A stretch of DNA of 64,000 nt. Origin: a virus. Its lineage: Duplodnaviria; Caudoviricetes. Within the stretch, counting starts at the first letter, position 1. The number at the start of each line of letters is the position of its first letter. Shown here piece after piece: positions 23,350-63,710 of the stretch. Position numbers and translations under genes: made by a program. The DNA is taken from IMG/VR virus record IMGVR_UViG_3300048581_000044, positions 25,138 to 89,137 of that record; one strand, 5' to 3'. The notes under the pieces were generated by a model. That model worked only from the letters and a program-made list of their open reading frames with translations, was not told where the DNA came from and made no database searches.

Positions 23350-23364
23350 CTCATTACCTTAGCT

Positions 23365-23628
23365 TTAAGCCGTCCAACGACCAAGCATGAAGCTACCAAC
23401 AATAACCCCAAACGCGATGACAATCGCCCACGTCGGATGTTCAGAAACCCACGTCGCCTCTTTGGTCTCAAGATCAACAAGACGAAGCTGCACTGCGGTA
23501 GAGGCGCTTGCAATTTTACTAAGGACCACATTCTTCCGCATAACCAGCGCCTTCCAGTCTGCGTTCAGCTCATGGATTTCCGCATTGAGCATGGCAGCCG
23601 CAACGCCGATGTCTTGCTGAATAGTCAT
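23365..23628 (-). CDS. small membrane protein (C-terminal TM), lysis cassette
   Basis: PTWAIVIAFGVIVGSFMLG; AAGGAG RBS. Confidence 0.6.
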   Translation of the reverse strand: MTIQQDIGVAAAMLNAEIHELNADWKALVMRKNVVLSKIASASTAVQLRLVDLETKEATWVSEHPTWAIVIAFGVIVGSFMLGRWTA

Positions 23629-23641
23629 GTCGATTTCTCCT

Positions 23642-34368: not shown

Positions 34369-34372
34369 TTCC

Positions 34373-34930: not shown

Positions 34931-34971
34931 TTCCCAAATCCCTCTCGCTAAGACGTTGTCTGTTGTGAGGC

Positions 34972-35000
34972 AATATGGTAGCAAATTCGTCCTTTGTCAA
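34972..35000 (-). promoter_or_regulatory. sigma70-like promoter for rmlC-rmlD
   Basis: TTGACA (35000-34995)-N17-CATATT (34977-34972) in the divergent gap. Confidence 0.65.
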
Positions 35001-35031
35001 ACAACGGCTATGGCTAAAAAGCGAGGAAACC

Positions 35032-36021
35032 ATGAGAGTTTTAATAGTTGGCGGCGCTGGCTTCATCGGTTCAGTGCTCGCTCCCGTGCTGCTTGCACGA
35101 GGGCATGAGGTTACGGTTTTCGACCTCTTCTGGTTTGGAGATCATCTGCCGAAAGCTGTCAAGAAGCAAAAAGTCAACGCTGGCGCGCTCAAGGCCGAAG
35201 ACCTTAAGCCTTTTGACGCTGTGATTTTCCTCGCCGGGCTCTCCAACGATCCTATGGCCGATACGGCGCCTTTCTCTAATTACGTTTTTAACGCTGCACT
35301 CCCAAGCTATCTAGCCTATATTGCACGGCAGGCAGGCGTTAAGCTTTTCATTCATGGCGGCTCGTGCTCTGTGTATGGGCGAACGGAAGAACGTGTTCGC
35401 GAAGACAGCCAGCCTCAGACTTTCTCGCCGTATGGCGTCTCTAAGCTTATCGCCGAAACAGGGATTATCCAGCAGTATTGCCACGAGATGCGTGTCGTCC
35501 TCTTCCGCATGGGGACAGTCTGCGGCCCGAGTCCTCGAATGCGTTACGACCTTCTGCTTAACGCTATGGTCAAGGACGCAATCAAAAAACAAACCATCTC
35601 CGTCTTTGACAACATGGCCGAACGCCCAATCTTAGACATCGATAGCGCTTGCATTGCGTATGCGAATGCGCTGGAGGATAAAAAGGTCGTTGGGATTTAC
35701 AATCTTCTCTCGTTCAACCTTGGCGTCTCATTTGCCGCCGATGCAGTGCAAAAACGCGTCTTTGCCAAAACGCGCACACTTCCTAAAATCGTTTATCAAG
35801 GCGGGACGGACATCCGCAGCTATTCGGTCAATGACGGTCGGGCACAGCGTGCTAACTTGTCTTTTGAGACGCTCCCAACAGCCACAATCGATAAAATCAT
35901 TGATGGCGTGTTAGCTTCGACCGCTGACTTAGAGTCCTCAGCGTATCACAACATCAAACGTTTTAAGGAGTTGGTGGCGACTGAGTTCCCTGTGCTGTCA
36001 GGTACAGGTTGTCCAGCGTAA
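35032..36021 (+). CDS. extended-SDR NAD-dependent nucleotide-sugar epimerase/dehydratase
   Basis: GGAGFIG, LAGLSNDP, SCSVYG, YGVSK; GAGG RBS; lies opposite the late strand. Confidence 0.9.
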   Translation: MRVLIVGGAGFIGSVLAPVLLARGHEVTVFDLFWFGDHLPKAVKKQKVNAGALKAEDLKPFDAVIFLAGLSNDPMADTAPFSNYVFNAALPSYLAYIARQAGVKLFIHGGSCSVYGRTEERVREDSQPQTFSPYGVSKLIAETGIIQQYCHEMRVVLFRMGTVCGPSPRMRYDLLLNAMVKDAIKKQTISVFDNMAERPILDIDSACIAYANALEDKKVVGIYNLLSFNLGVSFAADAVQKRVFAKTRTLPKIVYQGGTDIRSYSVNDGRAQRANLSFETLPTATIDKIIDGVLASTADLESSAYHNIKRFKELVATEFPVLSGTGCPA

Positions 36022-47961: not shown

Positions 47962-48606
47962 TTAAGAAGAGGGCACTATCTTTCGTCCCGCAAGAACAGT
48001 CATCTGCTTTTCCTGCACAACGTAAGCTCCTACAGGCGTGAGGTTTATTTCAGGAAACAAAGCTGTGTAAAAAGGAACAGTGCGTGCTTTCCAGAATGAA
48101 TCAGACTCTTCCTCTTTCTCAGCTGTGCGTTCAACCAAGAACAGCAAACCATCTGGAGCCAAAAGCTGATTTAACAACGGCCCGTACTGGCTAACAATGT
48201 CATCAGGCAAATATCCCAGGACATTCACAATCCACATAGCGTCAAAAAGGTGCTTTTCAGCATGGAAAAACGAGTGCGGGCCGCAAGCACGATAACGGAC
48301 GCGCTTATGGTAACTAGCTAGGTTGAAAAAGTCCGAACAGGGGTCATAGGCTAAGACGCGATATGTTGCGTAAATGTTAGCCAGTGCGTTAGAAAATCTC
48401 CCATAGCCACATCCGAAATCTAAAATTCTAGCTTTTCGTTTATCAACTATTTGCGCTTTGAAAAGCGAAATAAGCAGGTTTAGCTGCCGATTAGTGCTGT
48501 GGCTGAAATAAGTACGATCAATTGCCAAGTCATCAGCCGCGCGTTTTCCATAACGGCTGACACGTTCCTGCCAGATGTCACGAAAAGGGTTGAAGGAGTC
48601 AGACAT
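47962..48606 (-). CDS. class I SAM-dependent methyltransferase
   Basis: RILDFGCGYGRF motif I, AYDPC, FDAMWI..VL, LLAPDGLLFLVE. Confidence 0.88.
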   Translation of the reverse strand: MSDSFNPFRDIWQERVSRYGKRAADDLAIDRTYFSHSTNRQLNLLISLFKAQIVDKRKARILDFGCGYGRFSNALANIYATYRVLAYDPCSDFFNLASYHKRVRYRACGPHSFFHAEKHLFDAMWIVNVLGYLPDDIVSQYGPLLNQLLAPDGLLFLVERTAEKEEESDSFWKARTVPFYTALFPEINLTPVGAYVVQEKQMTVLAGRKIVPSS

Positions 48607-48646: not shown

Positions 48647-48997
48647 TCATTCGTAACCCCACCCTTCGTGGTCAGATCGGCCGGTGTTCAAATGCCCATC
48701 CTCATGCCGGATGATGCAGGCGACTTCGACCACGGGCAGATCGCTCGGCACGATCCGCAGCGGCACGCCGTCGACGCGACCGGGGATCACGCAACCCTCC
48801 AAACGCCCGCGGTAGTCGCGCAATCCCTCAAACACCCGGCACGCGCTGTCGATGTCCCAATACGGCAGGCGGTGATCGATGAACGGCCGCGTTGGGACGT
48901 GGTCGTAGGGCTGCGGCGGGATCAATGTCGTGTCGCAGTCTGCCAGTGCTGGCGTGGCGAGGAGGAGCAAGAGGGCTAGGGCTGCGGCGCGAGTCAT
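48647..48997 (-). CDS. small secreted protein with HExxH motif
   Basis: ATGA overlap; MTRAAALALLLLLATPALA-D; RHEDGHLN...DH. Confidence 0.65.
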   Translation of the reverse strand: MTRAAALALLLLLATPALADCDTTLIPPQPYDHVPTRPFIDHRLPYWDIDSACRVFEGLRDYRGRLEGCVIPGRVDGVPLRIVPSDLPVVEVACIIRHEDGHLNTGRSDHEGWGYE

Positions 48998-50232
48998 GGG
49001 GCGGTGGCCGCTTGGAATTGTGCGTCTGACATCGCATATGGGACTACATACTGCCGCGCCGTGTTGCCATTCTGGAATGCTGACGACCCGCCTATTGATC
49101 CCTGATACACCGCCGTAACCGCAGCCGGGGTATTCGCGGCGCTCACTATCGTGCCACCATTCAACACGATAGCAACACTTGTCGGCATCCACCGCAGACC
49201 GACCTTGACTGTTCCGGTCCACGTCGCGGTGTTTGCCGTTGTTTGCGCCCCACCCCATGCGGTCGTCAGTTTGTTGTCTACGGTCTTGCCAAGACCGATG
49301 AGAGAGTTGATGCCGAAGAGTGTCCCGGCCACAGATTGCACGCCGTTTTTAAGTGTGATGATGATGGTGCCGCTTGGCTTTTGCATAGCGGCAAGGGCCA
49401 CGCTCTGCCACGGCGCATTATCGGCAGCCCGCGTGGCAGCGGCGCCTGCGGTGATGATCGGGGGTGTGGCGAAGGAGCCTTCTTCGAGTTGGTTAAGGAT
49501 GAAGTAGACGACGGCGCCAGGCTGCGCACGGATGCCTAATTGATCCGCACTTACAGAGGTGCCCGTTACGCTGACGCGGGCGTATGTTGCAGAGGTAATT
49601 GCAACAAAAACTCCCGTACTCGTAACCATCCGCAAGATACTGCCCGCAGGCCCCGAAACTCGTGCGTACACGCTTAGCGTTTGGGTATTTATATTGCCCG
49701 CCGTTCCACCCATTGCTGCAATTGCGGCCGTAGACCCACTGGTATTATCTAGCTTGTAGACTTTGCCGCTGGTAGCAATTTGAGAGAGCAGCGCCGTGGC
49801 AAGCGCAGAACTATCATCAACAACCGTGAGCGTCGCCGCAGCATCCCCCGTCTTCGTGACGTTCGTCAGGTCTGTCGGATTTGCGTTGTAATTGGTGTTT
49901 TTGTTCGTCCTCGCCTCGTACACCTGCAACCCGAGGTCGGAAATAGCCAGGACGTTGTTACCAACGCTAGACCAATGCCCATTCACCCACTGCACAAGTT
50001 CTGGCGATGCGCGCGAGACCGACAGCACGCTTGTGATTGGCACAACGCGCCGATTGATCGTGCATTGCGCAGTCGTAAACTGGCAGTCCGCCGACGAGCC
50101 CGGCTGCGTCCACGCAACGACGCCTGAGAACAGCACCGCATCTTTTGCGGCGGGTGTGATCCCGCTAGATGGCGCAGCAAGCAACCCGACTAGCAGGAGC
50201 GGAAGCAGCAATATCCGGAGGAGGTTCTTCAT
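48994..50232 (-). CDS. virion fibre/lectin-like protein with predicted signal peptide
   Basis: MKNLLRILLLPLLLVGLLAA-P; SRAS...GLQVYEARTN and T.GAAATRAAD motifs, C-terminal ConA-like region. Confidence 0.75.
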   Translation of the reverse strand: MKNLLRILLLPLLLVGLLAAPSSGITPAAKDAVLFSGVVAWTQPGSSADCQFTTAQCTINRRVVPITSVLSVSRASPELVQWVNGHWSSVGNNVLAISDLGLQVYEARTNKNTNYNANPTDLTNVTKTGDAAATLTVVDDSSALATALLSQIATSGKVYKLDNTSGSTAAIAAMGGTAGNINTQTLSVYARVSGPAGSILRMVTSTGVFVAITSATYARVSVTGTSVSADQLGIRAQPGAVVYFILNQLEEGSFATPPIITAGAAATRAADNAPWQSVALAAMQKPSGTIIITLKNGVQSVAGTLFGINSLIGLGKTVDNKLTTAWGGAQTTANTATWTGTVKVGLRWMPTSVAIVLNGGTIVSAANTPAAVTAVYQGSIGGSSAFQNGNTARQYVVPYAMSDAQFQAATAP

Positions 50233-50247
50233 GCGCCTGCGCCTCGC

Positions 50248-51042
50248 CTACTGAGCCGTCTTAACGCCGAACTGCCAGTCGCCCGTCGTCGGAGGCGTCT
50301 CGGCAGTATTATCGGTCACGCACATGTAGAGCGTAGTCCCGTCGCTCACATACGACAGAGCCAAATTCGTGAGGGCGCCAAAGCTTGCAGTTGCGGCGTC
50401 ACCAGATACCGCGGGGAATAATTGCCCAAGCGAACCGTTGAGGACCATGAACAGGTCATCGGCGGCGCTACCAACAAAGGCGGCTTTGTCCGTGCAGGTC
50501 GTATTAGTTGGGTTATGGTCCCAAACCCGCACCGTCTTGGCCACCGTCGAGCCACTGGCTGACCGGCCTTGCACCACCATGAGCGCCCCGGACGACGTGA
50601 CTGTGAATGACATCAGGCCGCCCAGCGCATTGCCTTGAGCATAGGCTGCGTTTTGAATGGTTGGCTTGATCCAGACGTTTTTGTAGGCTGCGGGATCGGT
50701 GCCGACCTTACCAATAACGTTGGCACCGGCATTCGCCACCACCCCATTCGTTGACCCCGGCGTGGTCTGGTCGATCTTGACCGGCCACGGGCTTGCGCCT
50801 GCGGTGCCTTGGTTCGCCGTCACTGTGCCGGAAACCGAAACCGCCGAAATGCAAAGCGTTCCATCAGGGCCAAGCGTGATAACACGCAGTTGCCCGACTG
50901 CTGTTGCGTAGTTCGCCCCAGCACAAGCAGCAAGGACAATTCCACGTGCCCCAGCATCTTGCGCTAAGGCAGCGGGCGAAAAGAAAAGCCCAAAAAGGCT
51001 CCCCATAAAAGCCAAGATCAGGGCAAAACGAGGGGATTTCAT
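50248..51042 (-). CDS. head decoration-like protein with predicted signal peptide
   Basis: GGAG RBS; MKSPRFALILAFMGSLFGLFFSPAALA-Q; VTANQGTAG.SPWPV motif; directly after the capsid gene. Confidence 0.7.
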   Translation of the reverse strand: MKSPRFALILAFMGSLFGLFFSPAALAQDAGARGIVLAACAGANYATAVGQLRVITLGPDGTLCISAVSVSGTVTANQGTAGASPWPVKIDQTTPGSTNGVVANAGANVIGKVGTDPAAYKNVWIKPTIQNAAYAQGNALGGLMSFTVTSSGALMVVQGRSASGSTVAKTVRVWDHNPTNTTCTDKAAFVGSAADDLFMVLNGSLGQLFPAVSGDAATASFGALTNLALSYVSDGTTLYMCVTDNTAETPPTTGDWQFGVKTAQ

Positions 51043-51079
51043 CAGCAGTGCTCCGTACAGGGTAGCCGCAGGCAGCGCA

Positions 51080-51113
51080 ATTATAGCTGAAAAGTGGTCT
51101 AACGACAGATAGC
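51080..51113 (-). promoter_or_regulatory. candidate late promoter GCTA-N24-TATAAT
   Basis: Immediately downstream of the capsid terminator. Confidence 0.6.
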
Positions 51114-51119
51114 AAAAGC

Positions 51120-51149
51120 AAAAAGAGCCCACTTACGCAGGCTCTTTTT
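51120..51149. terminator. bidirectional intrinsic terminator after the major capsid gene
   Basis: AAAAAGAGCC-N10-GGCTCTTTTT. Confidence 0.8.
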
Positions 51150-51178: not shown

Positions 51179-52963
51179 TTAAGTGGCGCTTGCATTCGGC
51201 AAGAGAGGATTCCAGTTCGGCTGATCAGGCACGTAGTTATTGATCAAGCCGTGGAATTTCGGAATGCGCAGCCGCGAGGCGCCAATCATGCACACTGCCC
51301 AAGGCATGTAGAGGTTTTGGGCGAAAAGCTCAATCTTGGTAAGCGGGAGCAGATAACGGAAGTCCAGCGCGAAATCGTTCTCGTCCAAGTCAAGAAGGAA
51401 GATAACTTCCGAGCCGGGGATTTTGGTATTGAGATCAGTCCAGGTGACTGCCGAACCCCCCGAAGCCGCAACCGTGCCAACGTAGCGGTAAGAAGCCGCG
51501 TTCGCCGCACCGCTGGTGGCAGGCGCGTAGCCAAGGCCAGAGCGATAAATGCGGAAGGCTGCGTCGGTGGCTTCAGCTGGGGTGACGGTCAAGGTGATCG
51601 CACCACTGGCCGCAACACCCGTCACGGCCAGGGTCGAACCAGCACCGGCGCCCGAAGAGATGAAGGTCAGGAGTGATTCGTTCATGGATGCATCGCAGGA
51701 TGCGGCGGCGTAGCTGTAGACGCCAGAGGCCGCGACATAGCCGCCAGCCCAGGCCGAGTTGGCAACCGCGCCAGTGACCACCGCAGCGCTCAACGACGTG
51801 GGCTTAAGCGGATTGGAAACAGTCGCGTAGTTTGTGCCATCATCAAAGAGGATCGCCTGGGCAGGCTTATCACGCGCACTGATGAAGAGATCGATTGGAA
51901 ATTGAATCTCACCAAAGCGCGTGCGCATTCCTTGCAAATCGCCATCCACAACGACGCCAGAAAGGCGTTCCTGGGTGGGCGTAATCGCCGTGACAATGTT
52001 GTTCAAGACGGTCGTAACGAGTGATTGGAGAGAACCAGCAGCAGTTGGCGACATGAACGCGTGGGTAATCCGGCCAAACTGACGGAAGTTAGTAATCTGC
52101 GCCGAAGCTTCATAGATCAGGTTGAACAAGCCCTGAGCCGAAGTCCAGCCGTTGGTCGTTCCAACCGACGCGTACCACGTTTGGTAATTGAACGTATTCG
52201 CCGCGGGGATCGAACCAGCAATACCCTGGAACTGATTCGCGAAGAAAGTCGGATTGCCCCAATAGCACGTCCAATTGATCGAAGAGAGGACCGTCAGGGC
52301 AGCGTTGATGTTTTCCTGCGCCGTGATATCGACAAAGGAGTTCTGCGCTGCCAAGGCAGTTGTGATCGCACGGCCATTGACCGCGAGCTTGAGCGTGATG
52401 TTGTTGAGGTTATAGACGCCCGCGCTGGTGGACAACGTGCCAGAGGCAACATTGCCAAAGCCCTGGAACGCCGTACCAGGAAGACCGCCGCCAGTATCGG
52501 CAGCATACGGCCAGTAATCGACAACCTGATAGGCGCCGGACTTGTGAAGGCACTGATAAAGCGTGAAAGAATTCGGCCGAACCGTGCCACGGGCCATCTG
52601 TGTATCGAGCGAGACATAGCCGAGCGACTGGCCACCGTTGATGGCCGAGAAGTTCGTCAATGTGCCAACGTCAAGCTGCGACTTGGTGATTGCACCGTCT
52701 TTGGAGAGATCGCGCAAAGACTTAAACTGCTTCGCTCGCGTGTTCGACCGGAAGGCTTTAGCGATAGCATTATGCGCCGTCATCCGGCGATCCGCTTCCT
52801 GACGCACATACTCAATGTCCGCGCTGCGGCTCTCTTGAGGCATCATCAGCCCGAGCAAAATCCCGCGGAACGGGCTGTTCGGATCGATCATGGCGTTGAG
52901 CCGGTCAACGGACTTTGCAATCTCCATTTGGAGGTGATCGCGAACAGTTAGCTCCTGAGTCAT
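51179..52963 (-). CDS. major capsid protein (SPO1/Twort-like) with C-terminal accessory domain
   Basis: After protease and scaffold; ITKS..., GGQSLGYVSLD...FTLYQ, E.A...W.C.WG pattern; GAGG RBS before ATG 52963; strong terminator downstream. Confidence 0.85.
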   Translation of the reverse strand: MTQELTVRDHLQMEIAKSVDRLNAMIDPNSPFRGILLGLMMPQESRSADIEYVRQEADRRMTAHNAIAKAFRSNTRAKQFKSLRDLSKDGAITKSQLDVGTLTNFSAINGGQSLGYVSLDTQMARGTVRPNSFTLYQCLHKSGAYQVVDYWPYAADTGGGLPGTAFQGFGNVASGTLSTSAGVYNLNNITLKLAVNGRAITTALAAQNSFVDITAQENINAALTVLSSINWTCYWGNPTFFANQFQGIAGSIPAANTFNYQTWYASVGTTNGWTSAQGLFNLIYEASAQITNFRQFGRITHAFMSPTAAGSLQSLVTTVLNNIVTAITPTQERLSGVVVDGDLQGMRTRFGEIQFPIDLFISARDKPAQAILFDDGTNYATVSNPLKPTSLSAAVVTGAVANSAWAGGYVAASGVYSYAAASCDASMNESLLTFISSGAGAGSTLAVTGVAASGAITLTVTPAEATDAAFRIYRSGLGYAPATSGAANAASYRYVGTVAASGGSAVTWTDLNTKIPGSEVIFLLDLDENDFALDFRYLLPLTKIELFAQNLYMPWAVCMIGASRLRIPKFHGLINNYVPDQPNWNPLLPNASAT

Positions 52964-53028
52964 TTTGGTCCTCGTTGAGTGCCGACTTTTACGGCGATAC
53001 AAGCGTCAGTTGTTGTGGCGGACGGCGG

Positions 53029-54300
53029 TTAAGCGACTCGCAGAACGTCAGAAAAGAGCGAACGAACAGAGGCGGTGGTCTTGGCAAGGCGGTCAGTGAC
53101 GACAGTCGGGTCGAGCTTGCCGCCTTTGACGAGTTCCAGCTTGGAGAAAATGTCGCGGGCAGCAAAGGCGTCGGTCATGGAAAGCGTGCCGGAGTCTTCC
53201 ATGTCCATAATGCGCTCAGGGATCGTGTTGAGGGATTCCAGAGTCGCCTTGGCGATGTTAGGGACCTGATCGCTTACGCGGCTTTTGCCAGAGACAACAT
53301 CGAGCATTCCGGCGACGGTGGTCTGGAGAGTCGCAATACCAGCGAGGGCTTTCTGGAGGTCGTCGGGGGAGACGGCGGATTTAGCAGCTTCAGCAGCCTG
53401 ATTGCCCGTCTTCGGGTCAGCGTGATCGGCCTGATTCCCAGCGATGTCGGTTTTGGCCTTGGCAGCTTTTGCAGCTTTGGCAGCCTTGGTCTGCTCTTCG
53501 CCGTCGTCTTCCTCGTCCTCTTCGTCGTCTTCCTGCTCCTGCACGACATCGACATCGGCTTTCGCTGCGAGGGCACGGACGGATTTCTTGAGTTCGAGGC
53601 TCTTGGCCGCATAAGCACAGCTACGCGCCTTGCCGAGCAGCTTGCCAGCCGCCTTACGGAGAGCCTTCGCTTCGGCTTTAAGGGCCTTGCATTTCTCTTC
53701 GTCTTCAGGTTCGTCTTCGGCGAGCGCTTCGGCTTTCTTGGCCTTTTTGATAAGGCCCTTTGCCTTAAGGATCAAGGACTTAGCGCGAGAAGCGTTGATC
53801 TCAACGACCTCGGACTCTTCCTCATCTTCCTCTTCGTCGGTTTCCTCCTGCGCTTCATCCTCGTGATCGGCTTTGACCAGTGCGGAGAGCAGGGCTTTGA
53901 TAGCGGTCTGGCTATTCGCCAAGACGTTGAGATTGTTGGAAATCGCCTTCATAGAGGCGTTGAAATTGTGCAACATGTCCGCGAGGGCCATCGGGGTTTC
54001 GGCAACGCCGTGAACCTGGGTGACAGGATTGGAATATTCCTTGACCATTGCTTCAGCGCCTGCGCCCGAAGCAGCCTGGGCCGGGCCGGTCTTAACCTGT
54101 TCAGCAGTAGCCGAACGATTGGTCTGGCCTTCCAAGAAATGCCCTTCGACCAGTTCGCCAGGACGAAGCTTTTCCGAACCGTTCTGGAGCACGCCTTTGG
54201 TCAGCGCGGCGTCATCAGAAAGCGCCTCAACCAAATCAGGATCGGCCCCTTTCAGGATATTCAGGGCATCCAACAGGGTTGCAATCTTGGACTTGGGCAT
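53029..54300 (-). CDS. scaffold-like acidic/Lys-Ala-rich protein
   Basis: Lies between protease and capsid; poly-Glu/Asp tracts; many xxKA/KS sites; GGAG RBS before ATG 54300. Confidence 0.7.
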   Translation of the reverse strand: MPKSKIATLLDALNILKGADPDLVEALSDDAALTKGVLQNGSEKLRPGELVEGHFLEGQTNRSATAEQVKTGPAQAASGAGAEAMVKEYSNPVTQVHGVAETPMALADMLHNFNASMKAISNNLNVLANSQTAIKALLSALVKADHEDEAQEETDEEEDEEESEVVEINASRAKSLILKAKGLIKKAKKAEALAEDEPEDEEKCKALKAEAKALRKAAGKLLGKARSCAYAAKSLELKKSVRALAAKADVDVVQEQEDDEEDEEDDGEEQTKAAKAAKAAKAKTDIAGNQADHADPKTGNQAAEAAKSAVSPDDLQKALAGIATLQTTVAGMLDVVSGKSRVSDQVPNIAKATLESLNTIPERIMDMEDSGTLSMTDAFAARDIFSKLELVKGGKLDPTVVTDRLAKTTASVRSLFSDVLRVA

Positions 54301-54418: not shown

Positions 54419-55363
54419 TCAGGAAAGGCGACGGCTAGACAATAGCAACTCATGCATAAGGGCGTGTGCGAAAAGCTCAGCCATCTCAGGCGCCATCCCG
54501 CAGCAGTTTTGAAAGTGTGCGGAGAAGCCGGGGGTGCTTTTTAGGCCGCCCGAATGAGGGCAGTCCTTTTTGATATGCGTATGGTATTGGCCTACGGCGT
54601 CGGACAAATTGCGCGGGGAAGAGAAGGAGGGGGCGGCTGGGGCGCCTGATTGCGCGACATAAGGCGATCCGCCGTCGAGGTCGAGAGGCTGGACAGTAGG
54701 CGGGGAAGAAAGGTTATCGCTCATGCTCATAGCTGGGACGGTGGGAGGTATAGAGCCAGCACTGGATTTCAGAAAAGCCGCGATGAAAGCCTTTGCCGAG
54801 ACGATTTTAACAAAGCCTTCGATTGCGTCGTTAACAGGAGAAGTCGTCAGCGCGAGAGATTTCCAGTCCATGCCGCTGATATGAAAGCGCCGGGCGCCGT
54901 TTTCACGGCTTTTGCCACGACAATCTTCGACCATACCGGGCTTGGGGAAGCCATAAATAGAAGCGCGATAGCGCACGCCCGCCTTGATCGCACGCCAGAC
55001 AGACTCGGCTTTATGAAGCGCGCCGTTGGAGTCCTCGGTCTCGCGAAGAAGCTCCATACGAACGCCGGTTCGCCCATCACCAAGATCGTTGACGGCTTTC
55101 GGATAGCCAATAATCCAGTCGGAAGGAATGCCTGGAAGCCCAAGACGGTGATGAAGCTCAGAGCCATGGTCAAGATCGATGTGGCCATTTTTGAGAAAAG
55201 AATCAGCTGAAGACATAAGAGCTTTTTGCTCAATAACATCGCCTTCGGAATCGCATTCCTCGTTGCTGACTTCACATTCCACGACGCGATTGCCTGCGGC
55301 ATCGGTAGACGCCTTGACGATTGTCGGGAGAGAGATGATTACGGCGTCTTGCGCGATCTGCAT
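54419..55363 (-). CDS. prohead (capsid maturation) protease
   Basis: VSNEECDSEGDVI, GHIDLDH, IGYP, YRASIYG, LALTTSPVN. Confidence 0.8.
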   Translation of the reverse strand: MQIAQDAVIISLPTIVKASTDAAGNRVVECEVSNEECDSEGDVIEQKALMSSADSFLKNGHIDLDHGSELHHRLGLPGIPSDWIIGYPKAVNDLGDGRTGVRMELLRETEDSNGALHKAESVWRAIKAGVRYRASIYGFPKPGMVEDCRGKSRENGARRFHISGMDWKSLALTTSPVNDAIEGFVKIVSAKAFIAAFLKSSAGSIPPTVPAMSMSDNLSSPPTVQPLDLDGGSPYVAQSGAPAAPSFSSPRNLSDAVGQYHTHIKKDCPHSGGLKSTPGFSAHFQNCCGMAPEMAELFAHALMHELLLSSRRLS

Positions 55364-55464: not shown

Positions 55465-55836
55465 TTAGAGAAAATCGCGGATAGCTGATTTGTGCTGCCC
55501 AGTTCCGATGTCGTTGTTCCCCCGCTTATCAACGCTTCCAGTGCGCAATGCAACACGCCCAGGAGACCCGTCGTCATCTGTAGCCTTAAAGAAGGCGTTC
55601 GGGTGGCGAGGGTGCATATATTCGATCATCGCAAAGTTGGCGGCGTCCATTAAATACTCTGTGTTGCCTGTTTCTGCGTATGACCGAAGGCGCTGCATGA
55701 GAGACCCGATAGCGTCTACTTTGTGTGGATAGGCGTTAGCGACGGGGCCATACTTGTAAAAGCTCATGTCCATGCGAGCCTTCATTCCAGCAGTAAAAGA
55801 TAAGCAGAATTCTGTTGTTGGGACTTCGGTCATCAC
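55465..55836 (-). CDS. conserved hypothetical phage protein
   Basis: YKYGPV...DAIGSL..RL..Y.ETGNTEYL.DAANFAMIE motif; GTGA-type overlap. Confidence 0.7.
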   Translation of the reverse strand: MMTEVPTTEFCLSFTAGMKARMDMSFYKYGPVANAYPHKVDAIGSLMQRLRSYAETGNTEYLMDAANFAMIEYMHPRHPNAFFKATDDDGSPGRVALRTGSVDKRGNNDIGTGQHKSAIRDFL

Positions 55837-56396
55837 GATTCTCCACTTACGGTCAAGCTATGAAGCGGGTCGGACAAAAGCCCTGAGCGCGGAAGGGAGT
55901 CAAGGTCCACGAAAAGCCGGTCCTCATAAACGCGATCCTTGGTGACGCTGATTTGAAACATGGTCAGCCAGTACTGGAGAGAAAGATAAGGCGCCTTTCC
56001 AACCCACCAACTGTCTTTATAAGTTGTGCGATTGGCTAGGATTCGAGACAGCCACTGCATAAAGTATTCCCCAACCATAACAAGCTCCATAGAGGAAGCG
56101 TGCCAGGAGCATTCGCTATAAAGATCACGGCGGTTGTCAGAAGCGTGAAAAGCCGCACGCGCAGCACGACCGGTGCGGCAAAGAGAACAAGGACCACGCA
56201 TGTCATTAAAGCAGCCGCGCGTGGTGCAAGTGGCAACACGCGTTGTGACGATGGATTGCGCGAGCTGAAAAGCTTTTAAGCGCTCGCGCCATTCAACGCA
56301 GAGAGGACAAATGCAAAAACGGTCGAGGTCATAGTAATCGTAATGCTCAAGCGGAGGAAAGACGTGAGTTTTAGAGAGCTTGATGATGGAGGGCAT
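55833..56396 (-). CDS. Cys-rich hypothetical protein (start uncertain)
   Basis: CICPLC and C...C....GPCSLC motifs. Confidence 0.5.
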   Translation of the reverse strand: MPSIIKLSKTHVFPPLEHYDYYDLDRFCICPLCVEWRERLKAFQLAQSIVTTRVATCTTRGCFNDMRGPCSLCRTGRAARAAFHASDNRRDLYSECSWHASSMELVMVGEYFMQWLSRILANRTTYKDSWWVGKAPYLSLQYWLTMFQISVTKDRVYEDRLFVDLDSLPRSGLLSDPLHSLTVSGES

Positions 56397-56412
56397 GGAG
56401 GTTTTCAGCTCT

Positions 56413-56595
56413 TTAACTTCCGATAGGCGTTGTGTGCGCCCATTCTTTAATACGCACATCTGCTGCAACATGCCAACTTGACCGTACACTACTCCAGCTG
56501 ATCCTGACCTTATCACCGTCCCATTTTGTGACGATGCCAAATCGCTCAGGCGCTTTGTCAAGATAAACCACGTCTCCCAGTCTTGGAGTCTTCAT
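56413..56595 (-). CDS. small hypothetical protein
   Basis: ATGA overlap with the glycosyltransferase stop. Confidence 0.5.
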   Translation of the reverse strand: MKTPRLGDVVYLDKAPERFGIVTKWDGDKVRISWSSVRSSWHVAADVRIKEWAHTTPIGS

Positions 56596-59500
56596 GCAGC
56601 ACCTTCTGTTTTTGGCGCCTGCTCACCATAGACATGTTCAACTGCCGCGCGTTCAGCCGGATCAGAAAGGAAATCAAGCTCGACGCTGATGTTTGAGTTT
56701 TCAGAAGCCAAGAAGCGAAACCATTCTGCGTACCAAGCAGGCATTAGAACATTCCCGTAAGGGCTGCTGTTTAGATTCATGCAGCTTTGGCAGAGGTTGC
56801 GCGAATAGCCAAAGTCGCAAGACTTGTCGCCTTCTAACTTGAGATTCCCACGCGGACAAACCGCTTCAGCCGAGCTAGGCCGATAAATCACAGGAACGCC
56901 CAAGCCTTTAAAGAATGAGAGAAGCTGAAGCGGCGCCTCATCCAAGCTTGTAAAGACAACCTTATCAATCCCAAGCTTGCGAAAGGCTGCGGAGGCAATG
57001 TCAGGACGGCGGATGTCCCAAGGTCCGGCGTTTGAAAGCTCAGGAAGGCTGATCGATATGACGTTGCCTTGGCAAGAGAGCTTATAGATGACAGCCCCGT
57101 CGTGAGATTCAGAAGCGCAGGCTTCAGACGGCCCAAAGAGGAGAACACGCTGGGTTTTGGAAAGCTGCCAAGGGATTGAAGGAGGTGGATAGGAATAAGT
57201 CGCGAGGTCCATGCCTGCGAGCATCATGCCGTTTTGTGCGTAGGCGAGCGCGAGATTTGGGTTCCAGTAAGGATCGGGTTCGGGATAAAGCTGTCCAAGC
57301 CGAACACCTTCATCTTGGAGGCGTTTGAGTTTGATAGCGTCAAAGCCGCTGTTATGGCGAGTCACGCCTTCAAAGTGCTGAAGCTCCGCTAGCGAACAGA
57401 CGATGTTTAGATAGCCTGCACGAATGGCCTCAAGACAGAACGCCACGTCGTTAAAGTCGTGAGGGAAGGATTCATCAAAGCCTCCAAGCTCCTCAAAACG
57501 ATGACGTGTGACAGCGAGACAGGCGCCAGTTACGGCGGTTGATTCATGTGTCGTAAATGCGTAGCCGTTAACGCCTGGGTTGTTGGCCGCTAGTCCTTTA
57601 TGGATGTGCCCGGTTAGGCCAGAGTTGCAGACAACACCGACGTGTTGGACATAGCCATGGGGGTAAGTGAGGCGTGCGCCTGCGGTGGCGACGGTGGGGA
57701 GAGTCGCCGCGCCGATAAGTTCAGCAAGCCAGCCAGAAGACATGACGCGCGTATCGTCGTTAAGGAAGACAAGAACCTCGCCTTTGGCCTCTTTGACCGC
57801 GAAGTTGTTGAGGGCTGACCAGTTGTAAGACTGTGGCCAGGAAAGAAGGCGGATGCGCGGATTGGTGGCAAGAGAGGCTTGGTAAGCAAGCATGTCTTCT
57901 CGCGTCGAACCGTTATCGACAATAAGGATTTCGTATTCGTTGTGTGAGGTCATCTTTAAGATCGTCGCGATGCAAGGCGCGAGCATTTCGAGATTGTCTT
58001 TGCAGGGGATGATGATGCTGGCGAAGACATTTTCAGCGCGAGAAGCAAAAGAGGTCGTTGTAAGAAGCGGGATAGTAGCGTTCTGTCTGATCGTAAGACC
58101 AAGCGATTCAGTAAGGGAAGCTGCAACTTTGGCCTTTTGAGAAGCTTCATGTACGCCATTTTCGAAATTCAGCGGCGGGAGGTGTGCAAGGACGCGGGGA
58201 AGGTGGCTGATAACCTTGCGATTGCTGAAGCCTTGAGTCAGGACAAGCTCATAAAGGCTGATCGCTGTAGCCTCGAAGTTAGCAGGAATGAGTGAACTGT
58301 GAACCGCGAGCGCCTGGGTCACGTAGTCACGCGATAACAGCATGAAGAGGTCAAAGTTAGGCTTAAAGTCTGGGTTAACGCGCTTGCCGTCCGTGATAAA
58401 ATCGTTGTCTGCGTAGACAATAAGCGCTTCGGGATTTCGGCTGATGTGCTCTTTAAGAAGCTCATAAAAGTCGCCAGCAATTTGGGCACCGGCTGGAACA
58501 AAAAACCGCCAATCACCAATCTGTTCTCCTGGCTGCTCAACCACAGTCGTCGGGTAAAAGAGATGCTCTATTAACGGCGCACCTTGTTGCTTATTTCCCC
58601 ACTCTAACGCAGCTGCAAGAGTCGCCTCCCCTCGCGTATCACACGCGTTAGCCCAAGCCGTGTAATCGCTACGGCTTTGCGGCGGGAGAGATTCAAAATG
58701 CTCACGATAGAATGAGAATTCAAGCTCTTCGCGAAGCGCTTTAAGCGCAGCTTCGTCCGATTTCCCTTGCGGCCAACGGCTGTTAATACGCAAAGCAGCC
58801 GTGTCGGCTTCTTCTTTAAGTGGCGGGGAAGCGTGAGGCACACCGACGAAAGCGCTAGGACAGAGACCGACTTTGAGCCCCCGCGCGCGTGCGGCACAGG
58901 ACCATTCGAGAAGCGCGATTTCGAGCGAGGAATCATCGAGATCAGGCGAGCCGATAGCTGCTAAGGCAGAGCGCCGACAGAGAACAGCTGGGCCGCTTGC
59001 GGCTACGAGATCGATTGGTTTGGCTTCAGCGAACGCTGCGCAAGACAAGCTAATCCCTGCCATGGCAGTTGAGTCAACAGGAGAGAAGGCAGTTTGAGTC
59101 GGAAAACCCCAAGGCCCACCGTCGTTGGTTAGAGCGCAAGCAACATCGAGATTGACTGCTTTGAGATTGGCGAGAGAGTCCTCTGTGTAGGTCGCGCCGG
59201 GACGGAGATAAAGGATGTCCTCTGAGGAGTCCAAAGCCTCGACAAATTCGGCTTTATTCGCCACAACGCAAACGCCCGAGCCTTTAGCGTTAAGCGCTGG
59301 CTTGAAGGGACGCACGTTTTTGGGAAGCCATGCCGCAAGACGCTTTTCAGCGTGATCATCGAGAATGTAGAAGTTCTTTACCCAAGTATGAAGCATCTGG
59401 CCGAAATGACGACGGCGTTCGGCTGTTGTGTCAATAAAAGATCGAATGGCGCTGATCCATTCGGCAGGCGTAGCAGCGTAGGCAAATAAGGGCGGACAGT

Positions 59501-60347
59501 CGGTTAGATAAGGCCCGACTGGTGAGGCAATAGTTGGATAAGCACAAGCGCCTGCTTCAACAAGACGGAGATTGGATTTACAGCGATTGAAGAGATTGTC
59601 TTCCAAAGGTGCGACAATCAAATCAACATTGATTGAAGCAAGAGAGGCGAGATAGCGGTCGGGAGGAGACGCCCCGGCGTAGGTTTTATGAACGCCTTCT
59701 GGAACAGGCGGGTCCATGCCGAGAAACACCCATTCGACTTCATCTTTGAGCGCAATAAAGGCTTCAGAGAGAATTGCGAGATCGCCAGCATGACCAATCC
59801 CGCCTCCCCAGCCGATACGGAGCTTTTGGCCGGGCGTAGGAGGCATGAACTGCTTTCGGATTTGCGTGGTGAGTTCTAGATCGTCTCGCCCAAGCATGTT
59901 AGGAACGACGCGGATATCAGTGCCTTCCTCGCAGATAGAGCGCATATGATCAGCGAGTTCGACCGTTGTGACCGTAACGGCGTCACATAGCGCGACGGCT
60001 CTGCGAATTTTCTCGTCAATGTTTGGCGTCATGTAAGGAGCGTGCCAGGAATAAGAAGGCACAGCAGAGAGCGCATCATCGACTTCAAAGACAAAGAAGG
60101 CGTCAGGAAGGAGTTCACGCCAATGGCGCATGGTGGCAAGGTGAGAGTCTTCGGTCTGACGCTGCCAGACAATGATAGAGGGGTTTATGGCTTTGAGAAC
60201 AGGATCAGACGGGAAAGACATCTCGGCACGGCCAGAAAGAACACCGCAGCGCCCCATGATCTGCATTGGACGAAGAATTCGGTGCCAACCGCAACCAGAA
60301 ATATCCCCAGGCAGGGCGAGCACAAACGGAGGACGTGTGAGTTTCAT
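56592..60347 (-). CDS. multi-domain glycosyltransferase (GT-B-like + GT2 domains), FgtA/RfbC-like
   Basis: GDISGCGWHR...QRQ...DD...IGWGGG.GH.GDL...APLEDNLFNRCKSNLRL; YADND...PDFKP; SIIIP.KD...VDNGS...FLNDD...VTGACL..GGFDE..NDV...DPYWNPNL. Confidence 0.9.
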   Translation of the reverse strand: MKLTRPPFVLALPGDISGCGWHRILRPMQIMGRCGVLSGRAEMSFPSDPVLKAINPSIIVWQRQTEDSHLATMRHWRELLPDAFFVFEVDDALSAVPSYSWHAPYMTPNIDEKIRRAVALCDAVTVTTVELADHMRSICEEGTDIRVVPNMLGRDDLELTTQIRKQFMPPTPGQKLRIGWGGGIGHAGDLAILSEAFIALKDEVEWVFLGMDPPVPEGVHKTYAGASPPDRYLASLASINVDLIVAPLEDNLFNRCKSNLRLVEAGACAYPTIASPVGPYLTDCPPLFAYAATPAEWISAIRSFIDTTAERRRHFGQMLHTWVKNFYILDDHAEKRLAAWLPKNVRPFKPALNAKGSGVCVVANKAEFVEALDSSEDILYLRPGATYTEDSLANLKAVNLDVACALTNDGGPWGFPTQTAFSPVDSTAMAGISLSCAAFAEAKPIDLVAASGPAVLCRRSALAAIGSPDLDDSSLEIALLEWSCAARARGLKVGLCPSAFVGVPHASPPLKEEADTAALRINSRWPQGKSDEAALKALREELEFSFYREHFESLPPQSRSDYTAWANACDTRGEATLAAALEWGNKQQGAPLIEHLFYPTTVVEQPGEQIGDWRFFVPAGAQIAGDFYELLKEHISRNPEALIVYADNDFITDGKRVNPDFKPNFDLFMLLSRDYVTQALAVHSSLIPANFEATAISLYELVLTQGFSNRKVISHLPRVLAHLPPLNFENGVHEASQKAKVAASLTESLGLTIRQNATIPLLTTTSFASRAENVFASIIIPCKDNLEMLAPCIATILKMTSHNEYEILIVDNGSTREDMLAYQASLATNPRIRLLSWPQSYNWSALNNFAVKEAKGEVLVFLNDDTRVMSSGWLAELIGAATLPTVATAGARLTYPHGYVQHVGVVCNSGLTGHIHKGLAANNPGVNGYAFTTHESTAVTGACLAVTRHRFEELGGFDESFPHDFNDVAFCLEAIRAGYLNIVCSLAELQHFEGVTRHNSGFDAIKLKRLQDEGVRLGQLYPEPDPYWNPNLALAYAQNGMMLAGMDLATYSYPPPSIPWQLSKTQRVLLFGPSEACASESHDGAVIYKLSCQGNVISISLPELSNAGPWDIRRPDIASAAFRKLGIDKVVFTSLDEAPLQLLSFFKGLGVPVIYRPSSAEAVCPRGNLKLEGDKSCDFGYSRNLCQSCMNLNSSPYGNVLMPAWYAEWFRFLASENSNISVELDFLSDPAERAAVEHVYGEQAPKTEGAA

Positions 60348-60857
60348 TTATAGAAAACCTCTTGCTTCGGGGATTTGTGCTAAGGGCTTGGTTGGGTTTG
60401 AAGGACGGATATGTGGACGTTTCAAACCGAGGAGGTGCGCTTTAGAAAAAAGCACCATGCGGTCTTTTTTAACAATACGGCTTATATCTGCAACAGCTGC
60501 GTGAGTAGGCCACAACTTCCGCAACGCACGTTCTTGCGCTTTAGTCCACTGAAAAGCCTCTGTTGTAAGACCTTCATACGCACTCATGTGGTAAATTGCT
60601 GCAACAGAACGCCCAAGGCGTTTCGCAATCTCAGCGCATTTCACATTCTTAGCCCTAAGTGCTTTTAGTAAGGCTATGTCTTTTGGAGTCCACATCTTAC
60701 CGCCCGCTCGTCCAAAACGTCTAGGAAGCCCAAACGCTCGCGCTTTAGAGTCTACCGTCCCCGGAAGAACGCCAAAATACGCTGCAATCTCAGCTCTTGG
60801 TGTTTTAGCTTTCCAGAGCTTTTTGAAGAGCTTGTCATCATTTATTTTCTTAACCAT
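60348..60857 (-). CDS. protein with three GcrA-N/Myb-like HTH repeats
   Basis: KKLW...AEIA..FG....V.SKAR.FGL; WTPKDIALLK.L...AEIA.RLGRS; WTKAQERALRKLW...SKAHLLGL. Confidence 0.75.
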   Translation of the reverse strand: MVKKINDDKLFKKLWKAKTPRAEIAAYFGVLPGTVDSKARAFGLPRRFGRAGGKMWTPKDIALLKALRAKNVKCAEIAKRLGRSVAAIYHMSAYEGLTTEAFQWTKAQERALRKLWPTHAAVADISRIVKKDRMVLFSKAHLLGLKRPHIRPSNPTKPLAQIPEARGFL

Positions 60858-60872: not shown

Positions 60873-63710
60873 CTAAGCTTCTTGCGAAGAATTCCGCCGA
60901 ACACCCGCTGCATGGCCGTGACCTTGTGCGAGAGCAGAGTCTTGTCGAGAGGTGATTGCTGAGCCGGGTGTGTCTGCGTCTTTTGTGCTGCCCTCAAACA
61001 TCATCTTTAAGAACTGCGCCGCAAGTGTCTGAAACACGCCACTTCTGTTAGCGTCAGAAGGTGTTAGTTCTAAAATCTTTGCAAGCTTCTTAAGGTCTTT
61101 ATCCTGTACCAAGGTCTCAAGCGACGGAAGACCGTTCTCAGCACGTGCTTCTTTCCATGTGCGAGATTCTTTCATCTCCGCGAACTGCCGCGCGTCTTCT
61201 TTAGGAGTCTTACCTGTGAAGCCAAAACGCAGATGCGGCCAGCGTGTTGCTATAAGGTATTCGTTGATAACGACTTCCCAGTGCGTCAGCAGGGGAGCAA
61301 GGCCAGGATCGTCTTCGTCAACTGCGGCGATAGAGGAGTCAGGAAGAGGTTCGTTGTCTCGCGCTGTGCCGCTGACTTTATAGCCCAGGCGGCGGACTGG
61401 AAAACGCCAGAGCGTTGCAAGTGCTCCTGCAAGCATGTTCATCCAGAGATTATAAAATGACTCGTTTCCTTTTAAGCGCGTCAAGTCCAGGAGTTCAAGT
61501 TTTGCACCATCTGGAAGCCCCATGACGGGAAGAGCCCACCACTTCGAAATGCCTTTTTTCATGTTCGTAAACATGCGAGTAAGCAAGTCGATTTGGCGTT
61601 GCGTGATCGCTCCACCAGAGACTGTTAGGATACCTTGTGCTATGCTCGAATTTCCTGACCAAGCAGCCTTGCCATTACGCCGAACATAGAGCGTTCCATT
61701 GGGAACAGTGACGCAGCCGATCTTACCTGTATAAGGCGTCTTCTCTAAATTGAAGGCTTGCATTTTCGACATTTTTAGGCGGATGTCGTAACGAGTCCTG
61801 CTTGTTTTGATCGCTTGTGTACCGCCCTTAATGATGCGCCCTGGCACGATATATTTTTCAGCGTTTACAGTACTGATTGTTGCAGCATACCCCATTTTTT
61901 GCGCTAGTTCTTGCAGTTGATCAGCCATAAGGCGGCTAGTCGTAGCTATGTGTTCAACACGGTTAAGCCTTTTTGCATTCTTCGTTTTTACCCATTGAAT
62001 ACAGCCGTCCCCTAAACAGTAATAATCCCAGAAGATTTTTTGTTGGCGAGGTGTCGCGTCAAGAATTTCCTGTGGGATGTGCTTTGTGTAGCAGTCTTCT
62101 CCAAACTGCCGAAGGTGTTCAGCAAGGCCGTGCCAGTTCACAGCAAAACAATTTTCTGCATAAAACTGAGGCTTAGCATCAAGCACTTTTTGAATCAGTG
62201 CGTAAAACGGTTGGAAACCCTTAGAAGCGCGTCTTTGGGCAATGGAGATTTTCTCTAAACGGCGGCTGTTACCCTTTGCCAAGCTTCCTTCCGAAAGAAA
62301 CATACCCAAGAAAGCACAATAATCGTCGCCCGAAATCTTTCGAGGTTTACGGCCATAATGTGTAGGATAGGCAGAAAACGATTTTGTTTTGATCTCCTTA
62401 CCCTCCCACGCAGATGTCGTCGGAAGGCAATAGTTTTGCCTTGAAAGCTTCTTCATGCCTTGTAACTGCAAAAACAAATCGCGTGCAGTACTGACAGTGT
62501 AATCAGTCTCGCCATAAATCAAAAAAGAGGGCTTGTATTGTGTAATGATCCGATGGTTTGGCGTTACCTCAAAATCAAACGACCTTGAAGCCACACGATA
62601 CATGTCACCTGAATAGTCGTGCCATGTTTTAGCTGTAGCTTTCTGGTATTCAAACGTTCCATGCTGCAAATTAAGCGTTGCAAACAAGTCCTTTTCGATG
62701 TCTACCGCACCAAACAGCTTCCAGCCTTCTTTTGTCAAAACCTCCGTATCTGCTCGGTGGCATTTATCGAAGACATCACAATTAAGGTCAATCGCATTCT
62801 GAAATCCCTTGATAATGCGCATCGCCATTTCGACCTCCGGGTACCCGTAGCCGAAAACGTCAGGGTCAGTACGCGGGTTACGCACCGCAATGGTCAGCTC
62901 ATCACGTGTAAATGCTTGAATGACTCTTCCGCCCTCATCAACTGCCACAGCATATTTGTCAGGATCGTTCTCATAACCAGCCGTCGTACAAAGCCGGATG
63001 TTTCCTGCTGGAAGAAGCGCGTAGCCTTTAACACACTCCTTCATATCCATGTCCGTCCAGATCGCGAGCATGTCGAAGGTGAGCCAGTCGCGCGTTCCAG
63101 CCGCAAGAAACTTTTGAAAGCCTGTGAGCCGTTTGGAGTCACGTTTGCGGACTTCCGTATAGCTCGTTTCGATATTAGAGTTCTGGATGAAGCGTGTCGC
63201 TTCAGCTATGTCTTTCTTGACGTTCGCTTTGTCGTTATCTTCCGTATCGACGGCTTCAATGTGCCAGCCGGGTTTCCAAATGTGTTTTGCGTGGTTTGAA
63301 TAACGAAGCACGTCATCAACGCGCATTCCGAGAACAAGCTGTGGGGCGACATTCTCACGCACGATCTTGCGAAGGGAATCCGGGTTAATCCCCGGCCATT
63401 GCATCACGCCGCCATTAGTCGTCGCATCAGGCGCGTAAGAAAGCCGCCCGAAGTTAAAAGCCGTAGGAGGAGTCCCAAGCGCCTTAGCGCTGGTGTATTT
63501 TGGCGACTCAACCCCAAGCGCCTTAGCCGCAGCCAGCATCGGATCATCCGACCCGAGCATACTCTCGAAAGCCTTAGCGTAACCCCCAATATCAATAGCT
63601 AAGGTGTTCTCAGGCATGGACGGGAAACGATAGCCCTTAACAGCATCAGCGCCTTCGTTAACGTCAAACACCGCCGCTTTGGCTGTTACAGCCGGACTTG
63701 ATTCACTCAT
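60873..63710 (-). CDS. portal protein (SPO1/Twort-like), intein-containing
   Basis: F.KF....RD.LTFD, RNPRTD...GYGYPEVE, F..|SSIAQGIL, WALPV motifs. Confidence 0.88.
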   Translation of the reverse strand: MSESSPAVTAKAAVFDVNEGADAVKGYRFPSMPENTLAIDIGGYAKAFESMLGSDDPMLAAAKALGVESPKYTSAKALGTPPTAFNFGRLSYAPDATTNGGVMQWPGINPDSLRKIVRENVAPQLVLGMRVDDVLRYSNHAKHIWKPGWHIEAVDTEDNDKANVKKDIAEATRFIQNSNIETSYTEVRKRDSKRLTGFQKFLAAGTRDWLTFDMLAIWTDMDMKECVKGYALLPAGNIRLCTTAGYENDPDKYAVAVDEGGRVIQAFTRDELTIAVRNPRTDPDVFGYGYPEVEMAMRIIKGFQNAIDLNCDVFDKCHRADTEVLTKEGWKLFGAVDIEKDLFATLNLQHGTFEYQKATAKTWHDYSGDMYRVASRSFDFEVTPNHRIITQYKPSFLIYGETDYTVSTARDLFLQLQGMKKLSRQNYCLPTTSAWEGKEIKTKSFSAYPTHYGRKPRKISGDDYCAFLGMFLSEGSLAKGNSRRLEKISIAQRRASKGFQPFYALIQKVLDAKPQFYAENCFAVNWHGLAEHLRQFGEDCYTKHIPQEILDATPRQQKIFWDYYCLGDGCIQWVKTKNAKRLNRVEHIATTSRLMADQLQELAQKMGYAATISTVNAEKYIVPGRIIKGGTQAIKTSRTRYDIRLKMSKMQAFNLEKTPYTGKIGCVTVPNGTLYVRRNGKAAWSGNSSIAQGILTVSGGAITQRQIDLLTRMFTNMKKGISKWWALPVMGLPDGAKLELLDLTRLKGNESFYNLWMNMLAGALATLWRFPVRRLGYKVSGTARDNEPLPDSSIAAVDEDDPGLAPLLTHWEVVINEYLIATRWPHLRFGFTGKTPKEDARQFAEMKESRTWKEARAENGLPSLETLVQDKDLKKLAKILELTPSDANRSGVFQTLAAQFLKMMFEGSTKDADTPGSAITSRQDSALAQGHGHAAGVRRNSSQEA
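61650..62762 (-). mobile_element. intein (371 aa) with LAGLIDADG endonuclease in the portal gene
   Basis: CHRADTEVLTKEGW; block B TPNH; FLGMFLSEG and CLGDG; ends CVTVPNG...SGN then +1 Ser. Confidence 0.92.

Follow-up and report, generated by a model that had tools for sequence, protein, structure and literature searches.

In the Pseudomonas syringae group, fgt1 and fgt2 lie upstream of fliC, and Fgt1 transfers rhamnose to Ser residues of flagellin (PMC3927599). A pa1091 mutant has unglycosylated flagellin, and PA1091 of strain PAO1 is described as a fusion of GT2 and phosphotransferase (PMC11833859). The GT-B domain of Caulobacter crescentus FlmG depends on a distinct domain for substrate binding (PMC7591256). 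For phages, the part of the literature accessible to our search demonstrates virion glycosylation only in mycobacteriophages, where it alters antibody recognition (Freeman et al. 2023, as cited in PMC12619734). Here, we describe a predicted multi-domain glycosyltransferase (GT) of 1251 residues, P0001, encoded at 56592-60347 (minus strand) of a 64-kb window that forms the end of the 89,137-bp IMG/VR virus record IMGVR_UViG_3300048581_000044 (completeness ~95%). All positions refer to this window unless stated otherwise. P0001 appears to be a rearranged relative of the flagellin-modifying enzymes, its gene belongs to the head operon of a clade of myoviruses, and it is a candidate for the glycosylation of virion proteins. 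A literature search found no account of such a phage enzyme.

P0001 and the flagellin-island glycosyltransferases

The open reading frame (ORF) translates without an internal stop and meets the upstream ORF at a TAA-ATG junction. Conservation identifies the ATG at 60347 as the true start: residues 5-27, with the GCG motif among them, recur in 40 homologues, and the automatic gene call (1224 residues), which begins at M28, loses them. The motifs quoted in an earlier analysis of the letters alone (hereafter the sequence-only reading) were all found in the protein: SGCG at residues 17-20, QRQ at 62-64, DD at 90-91, IGWGGGIGHAGDL at 178-190, APLEDNLFNRCKSNLRL at 246-262 and DPYWNPNL at 1025-1032; the spacing written as R..P was wrong by one. 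P0001 is the only PF00535 (GT2) match of the genome. It is predicted to be soluble, since no 19-residue stretch is hydrophobic enough for a membrane helix. No promoter or terminator signal above chance level was detected around the gene.

Outside the family of full-length homologues, the best named match was a Pseudomonas borbori protein of 1172 residues. Residues 5-342 of P0001 align with its C-terminal domain (residues 844-1171; 35% identity, 3e-44), and residues 612-982 with its central GT2 (residues 402-777; 27% identity, 2e-30). The P. borbori gene is found immediately upstream of fliC, flaG, fliD and fliS, amid other sugar-modifying genes. A scan of bacteria, with one genome per species, gave at least 596 matches, and the 80 best loci together with the P. 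borbori locus were examined. Over the 80 loci, identity to P0001 was 23-39% for the GT2 module and 26-38% for the GT-B domain. In these 80 loci the GT2 module comes first and the GT-B domain last, the reverse of the phage order, which agrees with the statement of the sequence-only reading that the GCG domain normally follows the DP.YNPNL motif. The sole exception among the 81 loci was an 8-kb contig of a metagenome-assembled genome (MAG) with the phage architecture, which is probably a phage fragment. The genes fliC, fliD, fliS or flaG were located within 10 kb in 59 of the 81 loci, and often they were adjacent. Several Pseudomonas loci carry two such GT genes upstream of fliC, in agreement with the published arrangement of fgt1 and fgt2, and rmlC or rmlD is present in several bacterial loci.

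The bacterial homologues, enzymes of ~1190 residues, have lengths clustered at ~1160-1270 and, besides Pseudomonas, are found beside the flagellin genes of many further Proteobacteria; for the Fgt1/FgtA type, published work shows the placement of rhamnose or a different deoxyhexose on serines of flagellin. The N-terminal region of ~390 residues in the bacterial homologues is GT2-like (hhalign probability of 95% against the phage GT2) and does not correspond to the middle domain of P0001; neither the middle domain nor the tail of the phage enzyme has a counterpart in the bacterial enzymes. A circular permutation, in which a bacterial order A-B-C became C-A-B in the phage, was rejected (hhalign probability of 0.3% between the middle domain and the bacterial N-terminal region). 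The homology of both modules and their opposite order confirm, at the sequence level, the proposal of the sequence-only reading that P0001 is a domain-shuffled, FgtA-like enzyme, i.e., a rearranged relative of flagellin-island GTs. With the Fgt1/Fgt2/FgtA type it shares a GT2 with its pre-segment and a GCG-bearing GT-B domain (27-38% identity), a length of ~1200 residues, solubility and, in some loci, linkage to rmlC or rmlD. It differs in its domain order, in a Rossmann-like four-Cys tail that only the phage enzyme has, in the tree position of its GT-B domain (see below), and in genomic context, because the bacterial genes lie beside fliC and the phage gene between portal and protease. The fusion described for PA1091 is also unlike the P0001 architecture.

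Domain anatomy of P0001

The GT-B (GT4-like) domain with the GCG motif spans residues 1-346 (59310-60347, minus strand) and is homologous to the C-terminal domain of the flagellin-island enzymes. The first 620 residues were modeled with AlphaFold (mean predicted local distance difference test (pLDDT) of 90) and the folds were compared by VIA and Foldseek. In the model, residues 1-346 form a complete two-Rossmann GT-B fold, in accord with the GT-B-like domain that had been read from the motifs. The VIA comparison gave a Z of 26.0 with sucrose-phosphate synthase 6kih (root-mean-square deviation 3.4, 318 aligned residues), 24.9 with 6n1x, 23-25 with BshA, PimA, PimB' and PglA (Foldseek 6e-11 to PglA), and 21.4 and 17.3 with the T4 alpha- and beta-glucosyltransferases, respectively. 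The domain matches phrog_7162 (1e-37), and the Pfam GT1/GT4 models stayed under their cut-offs with P0001 (PF13524, 16.6 bits versus 25; PF13692, 12.3 versus 27). Residues E88, D90, D91, H186, K257 and R261 are invariant in the 40 homologues.

The next part, residues 347-600 (58548-59309, minus strand), is a divergent GT2-like (GT-A) domain followed by a helical linker. Residues ~350-510 show a beta-alpha-beta pattern. When a profile of this region was compared with 1.8 billion representative proteins, ordinary GT2 proteins were retrieved at ~1e-11, and 9 of 10 sampled matches contained PF00535, aligned from the DXD region onward; no match was found with the middle-domain profile among solved structures. 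Because the profile retrieves true PF00535 proteins, the region is, by sequence, GT2-derived. It has N-D-G at the expected DXD site, and D409 is kept in 37 of the 40 homologues. The sequence-only reading had placed two degenerate GT2-like segments in P0001. One of them is thus retained; for the other, residues 601-770, a GT2-like character was not shown (hhalign probability of 1%).

Residues 601-1040 (57228-58547, minus strand) comprise a pre-segment and the canonical GT2 catalytic domain, whose homologue in the flagellin-island enzymes is their central module. The one intact GT2 that had been expected here is well supported: residues 777-895 score 63.9 bits with PF00535 (cut-off 23.3), and the domain ends with the DPYWNPNL motif. 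N863-D864-D865 (the DXD motif), D967 (the catalytic Asp), H991 and R997 are invariant in the 40 homologues, and E993 is conserved in 39.

The remaining residues, 1041-1251 (56595-57227, minus strand), constitute a phage-specific tail with a cluster of four Cys (C1164, C1177, C1186 and C1189), retained in 28-29 of the 40 homologues. A model of residues 1031-1251 (pLDDT 89) is Rossmann-like. Its likeness to the N-terminal halves of GT-B enzymes is weak, with Z values of 6-7 (best 7.3) that lie in the range of common arrangements, and a Foldseek TM of ~0.3. The idea that the tail is a leftover N-terminal half of the same GT-B domain found no support in the sequence (hhalign probability of 3.7%), besides the weak structural likeness. 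Hence, of the truncated, Cys-containing, GT4-like tail claimed earlier, the four Cys and the Rossmann-like character stand, and the likeness to half a GT-B enzyme is not decisive.

Conservation of the gene in the head operon

The phage is assigned to the myoviruses; it encodes a tail sheath and baseplate J, along with a capsid protein of phrog_752. No near relative was found by megablast among ~50,000 deposited phage genomes, and tblastn against deposited phages gave partial matches only, the GT2 part to unannotated fragments and the GT-B part to Phapecoctavirus. Its capsid protein shares only 25-28% of its residues with capsids of phages (~50-95 kb) that infect Pseudomonas, Bordetella, Aeromonas, enterobacteria and Thermus. 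The host is probably a proteobacterium.

Full-length homologues of P0001 formed ~76 clusters, with 29-56% identity and lengths of 1133-1567 residues (mostly 1200-1320), conserved along the whole length. Nearly all clusters are metagenomic; they are at present labeled just "GT2 family glycosyltransferase", and some are binned in bacterial MAGs. A scan for related loci with a single protein as query returned nothing, and with an alignment as query loci were found. In ~19 of them the GT lies just downstream of the portal gene, with protease and capsid genes downstream in most; across these loci, capsid identity was 47-67% and GT identity 27-50%. A capsid-profile search yielded 15 IMG/VR loci, and GT sequence was located upstream of the prohead protease in all of them, with the placement after the portal seen wherever the portal gene was on the DNA covered. 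In two divergent loci of this capsid type the slot holds the GT-B domain alone (~330 residues), which in one case is encoded on the opposite strand. In distant cultured relatives the slot after the portal is occupied by a GDSL lipase (Touem01) or a 388-residue protein without a known role (ST4). We conclude that the GT is a core head-operon gene of the clade. In the window itself, identification of the neighbors bore out the earlier placement of P0001 in the late operon between portal and prohead protease, from which small ORFs separate it.

In a tree of GT-B domains (FastTree, unrooted, Shimodaira-Hasegawa-like support only), the fused phage, stand-alone phage and bacterial forms fell into three clean groups. 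The GT is therefore, as judged from this tree, old in the phage lineage. A recent capture from a host was rejected, as the GT-B domains of the fused phage enzymes group together with good support, apart from the bacterial ones.

A GT of phage architecture was also seen on two contigs filed under bacteria, namely the 8.1-kb contig L076 (MAG 'Proteobacteria bacterium') and an 80.7-kb contig (NCBI MAG 'Patescibacteria group bacterium'). Both are probably misbinned phage contigs, and their taxonomic labels are therefore unfit for host inference.

Stand-alone GT-B homologues in other phages

Homologues of the GT-B domain alone, of 330-430 residues, were found in unrelated ~40-kb phage contigs (loci L026-L072, on IMG/VR contigs that span ~9-50 kb in length, most of them 35-45 kb). 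The gene is the last of a sugar cluster of 5-8 genes, which include those for a nucleotide-sugar epimerase, an aminotransferase and GT2 enzymes. In 30 of the 44 stand-alone loci, the strand of the GT-B gene also carries a major-head-protein gene (phrog_1357) 2.7-9.6 kb upstream, and in 17 of the 44 a structural protein (phrog_399) comes next after the GT-B gene. These loci give independent support for a link between this type of GT and the structural module. The cluster looks like a second candidate virion-glycosylation system.

Proposed function of P0001

We propose, with a probability of roughly 55%, that P0001 O-glycosylates virion proteins in the cytoplasm, an assignment made from gene position and ancestry. 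It is favored because: i) the ancestral enzymes glycosylate a self-assembling surface protein, ii) the gene keeps one fixed place in the head operon, and iii) the catalytic residues are invariant. P0001 would be a cytoplasmic, late-expressed, multi-domain GT that, during head assembly, attaches an O-glycan to Ser/Thr residues of surface-exposed virion proteins. Its targets could be the major capsid protein (51179-53002, minus strand; phrog_752), head fibers or other head proteins; a candidate of the second kind is a protein with a head spike fiber domain of the gene transfer agent type (48994-50232, minus strand; NF048003, 41.2 bits versus a cut-off of 36). With two or three catalytic domains, P0001 would draw on host nucleotide sugars to assemble a short glycan, and its phage-specific parts, the middle domain and the tail, may recognize the new acceptor, by analogy with the tetratricopeptide repeat domain of FlmG. 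As described, FlmG resembles P0001 in principle, as a modular cytoplasmic protein O-glycosyltransferase for a self-assembling structural protein; it differs in having these repeats, in transferring pseudaminic acid and in the absence of a GT2 module.

Several points weigh against virion O-glycosylation. The bacterial relatives are tied to the Fgt1/PA1091 type only by their position next to fliC. Protein, lipid, small-molecule and DNA GTs all fit the GT-B fold about equally. The GT-B homologue of phage phAPEC8 (34% identity to P0001 over 130 residues) belongs to a four-GT cluster beside primase, DNA methyltransferase and polymerase genes, not structural genes. The clade is known from sequence alone and has no cultured member. 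No acceptor protein was identified for P0001, and the capsid protein lacks a Ser/Thr-rich C-terminal tail of the mycobacteriophage kind: in 17 clade members the capsid C-termini stop 3-6 residues past a conserved NPL motif, and such a tail was accordingly discarded as the acceptor. The Ala/Gly/Ser/Thr-rich insertion domain of the capsid was discarded as a feature special to GT-bearing phages, since Touem01 and ST4, relatives that have no GT, possess it as well.

The target could instead lie in the host. P0001 might act on flagellin, as its relatives do, or on an intermediate of O-antigen or capsule synthesis or some other glycan of the envelope, masking receptors so that superinfection is blocked or progeny do not adhere to cell debris; O-antigens, too, are built by soluble multi-domain GT2+GT4 enzymes, and P0001 has weak matches to a rhamnosyltransferase model and to exopolysaccharide-type GT models. 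We consider this unlikely, because the gene is fixed in the late head operon of every clade member rather than in an early or moron position, late expression would leave a short time to remodel the host surface, and P0001 has neither a transmembrane segment nor a transporter partner.

The invariance of the catalytic residues in both GT modules of the 40 homologues also bears on the idea that P0001 is packaged in the head, as may hold for the variable enzymes that many phages encode just after the portal gene, and either acts in the next host after ejection or has a structural part in morphogenesis. The different occupants of the post-portal slot in Touem01 and ST4 would fit such a role, as would the two conserved phage-specific domains, which have no assigned function. 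Together with this invariance, the two relatives that have only the 330-residue GT-B domain in the slot, one of them in the opposite orientation, and a P0001 sequence in which a capsid-targeting or cleavage signal was not seen make packaging improbable.

Glycosylation of phage DNA against restriction, to which the fit to the T4 glucosyltransferases and the phAPEC8 homologue beside replication genes would point, is very improbable, because no ThyA-type hydroxymethylase (PF00303) that could supply hydroxymethyl bases was found in the 89-kb, ~95% complete record, the gene lies in the head operon, distant from replication genes, and the closest homologues, for which the sequence-only reading had considered DNA-hypermodifying GTs as a possibility, are flagellin-island enzymes (35% identity over 340 residues, versus 130 residues for phAPEC8).

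Virion O-glycosylation by P0001 has two viral points of comparison. In mycobacteriophages, GT genes also lie in or next to structural genes, and the virion proteins are presumed to be modified in the cytoplasm. There, the glycans reside on C-terminal tails of capsid and tail-tube subunits, a tail that the capsid here does not have; the hosts are actinobacterial, and separate small GTs are used as opposed to the single four-domain P0001. The chlorovirus PBCV-1 encodes A064R, a multi-domain enzyme for a rhamnose-containing glycan on the major capsid protein; PBCV-1 differs in being a eukaryotic virus with N-linked glycans, and the third domain of A064R is a methyltransferase.

More tentatively, and at somewhat less than even odds, a whole clade of 80-110-kb myoviruses, with probably Gram-negative hosts, may coat its capsid or head fibers with a short deoxyhexose-containing glycan by means of this core flagellin-type O-glycosyltransferase, and in the unrelated ~40-kb phages this GT-B domain stands at the end of a cluster of sugar genes that directly follows the capsid gene. 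If virion glycosylation by P0001 is correct, the phenomenon would extend to a different phage group and a different chemistry, and P0001 would be a clear case of a protein-glycosylation enzyme re-aimed through domain rearrangement and new domains. If it is correct for both the clade and the ~40-kb phages, virion glycosylation would be widespread beyond actinobacteriophages and would have been assembled repeatedly from the bacterial flagellin glycosylation toolkit.

In phAPEC8 (NC_020079.1, 109618-112765), the four consecutive GT genes were observed between lysis genes and primase/helicase.

Sugar genes and methyltransferases

The sequence-only reading had combined P0001, rmlC, rmlD and SDR genes and two methyltransferases of the phage into a complete pathway of sugar supply, transfer and capping. 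This part was not sustained. An rmlD-like gene (33502-34470, minus strand) scores above the Pfam cut-off (125 bits versus 27) and below the NCBIfam equivalog cut-off (TIGR01214, 124 bits versus 224), and rmlC (34373-34984, minus strand) reaches equivalog grade (TIGR01221, 171 bits versus 155.75). The adjoining SDR (34975-36021, plus strand) is generically GalE-like. RmlA (PF00483) was not found in the genome, nor was an RmlB-grade dehydratase; the SDR scores 22.6 bits with TIGR01181, for which the cut-off is 365. Within the tail/baseplate module, 21 kb from the GT, the cassette is flanked on one side by the baseplate genes and on the other by the gene for a tail protein that matches a lysin domain. 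When co-occurrence was checked, as had been suggested, the cassette recurred in only 3 of 11 related records, which form the closest subclade, and in three complete relatives the GT is present and rml genes are lacking.

A class I S-adenosylmethionine methyltransferase of 214 residues (47962-48606, minus strand) was rejected as a conserved capping enzyme, because none of the 11 relatives searched has the gene, and its link to the glycan is unsupported for the same reason. The second class I methyltransferase sits inside a split DNA-polymerase locus, with one half of the polymerase on either side.

The sugar cassette is thus accessory to the conserved GT system. Its genes plausibly act as helpers in this phage, and they do not amount to a pathway that is complete or conserved. 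In this phage and its closest relatives, the products of rmlC, the rmlD-like gene and the SDR gene would probably raise or redirect the supply of dTDP-6-deoxyhexose from the product of host RmlA/RmlB.

In one relative (IMGVR_UViG_3300047333_000104, positions 52884-53354 of that record), an rmlC homologue carries an in-frame TGA and no rmlD is present; the cassette may be decaying there.

Neighboring genes

The upstream neighbor of the GT is the portal gene (60873-63710, minus strand), which carries an intein-like insert of ~371 residues. The insert (portal residues 316-686; 61653-62765, minus strand) lies exactly between residues that are adjacent in the portals of Touem01 and ST4, and shows matches to LAGLIDADG_3 (residues 558-617) and to the intein-like phrog_85 (residues 315-390). 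An intein that contains a homing endonuclease is the probable identity of the insert. Locus L010 has a portal of similarly great length. Between the portal gene and the GT, a 169-residue helix-turn-helix protein is encoded (60348-60857, minus strand), which is not conserved in relatives. It matches phrog_323 ('D5-like regulator') and shows faint HNH and transposase-like matches; the gene may be a mobile or homing-type insertion beside the intein-bearing portal.

Directly after the GT comes a Cys-rich ORF (55833-56561, minus strand), kept in this place in ~10 relatives at 25-40% identity. It had neither a family nor an atlas match, and its atlas model is poor. The prohead protease (54419-55363, minus strand) is 30% identical to the maturation protease of Aeromonas phage ST4 (4e-17). 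The major capsid protein probably starts at the ATG of codon 14. Right after its gene, three ORFs (48647-51132, minus strand), among them that of the spike fiber domain protein, have signal-peptide-like hydrophobic N-termini; export-type signals on head appendages are odd.

One relative of the head module is carried by a 121-kb ENA contig (L005), in which genes for VirB4, VirB3, TrbC and a VirB11-like ATPase were observed ~4 kb upstream (3670-5741 and 22629-23693 of that contig were noted), as was a TnpB/OrfB_IS605 gene. This contig may represent a phage-plasmid, or else an element that has inserted into a conjugative one.

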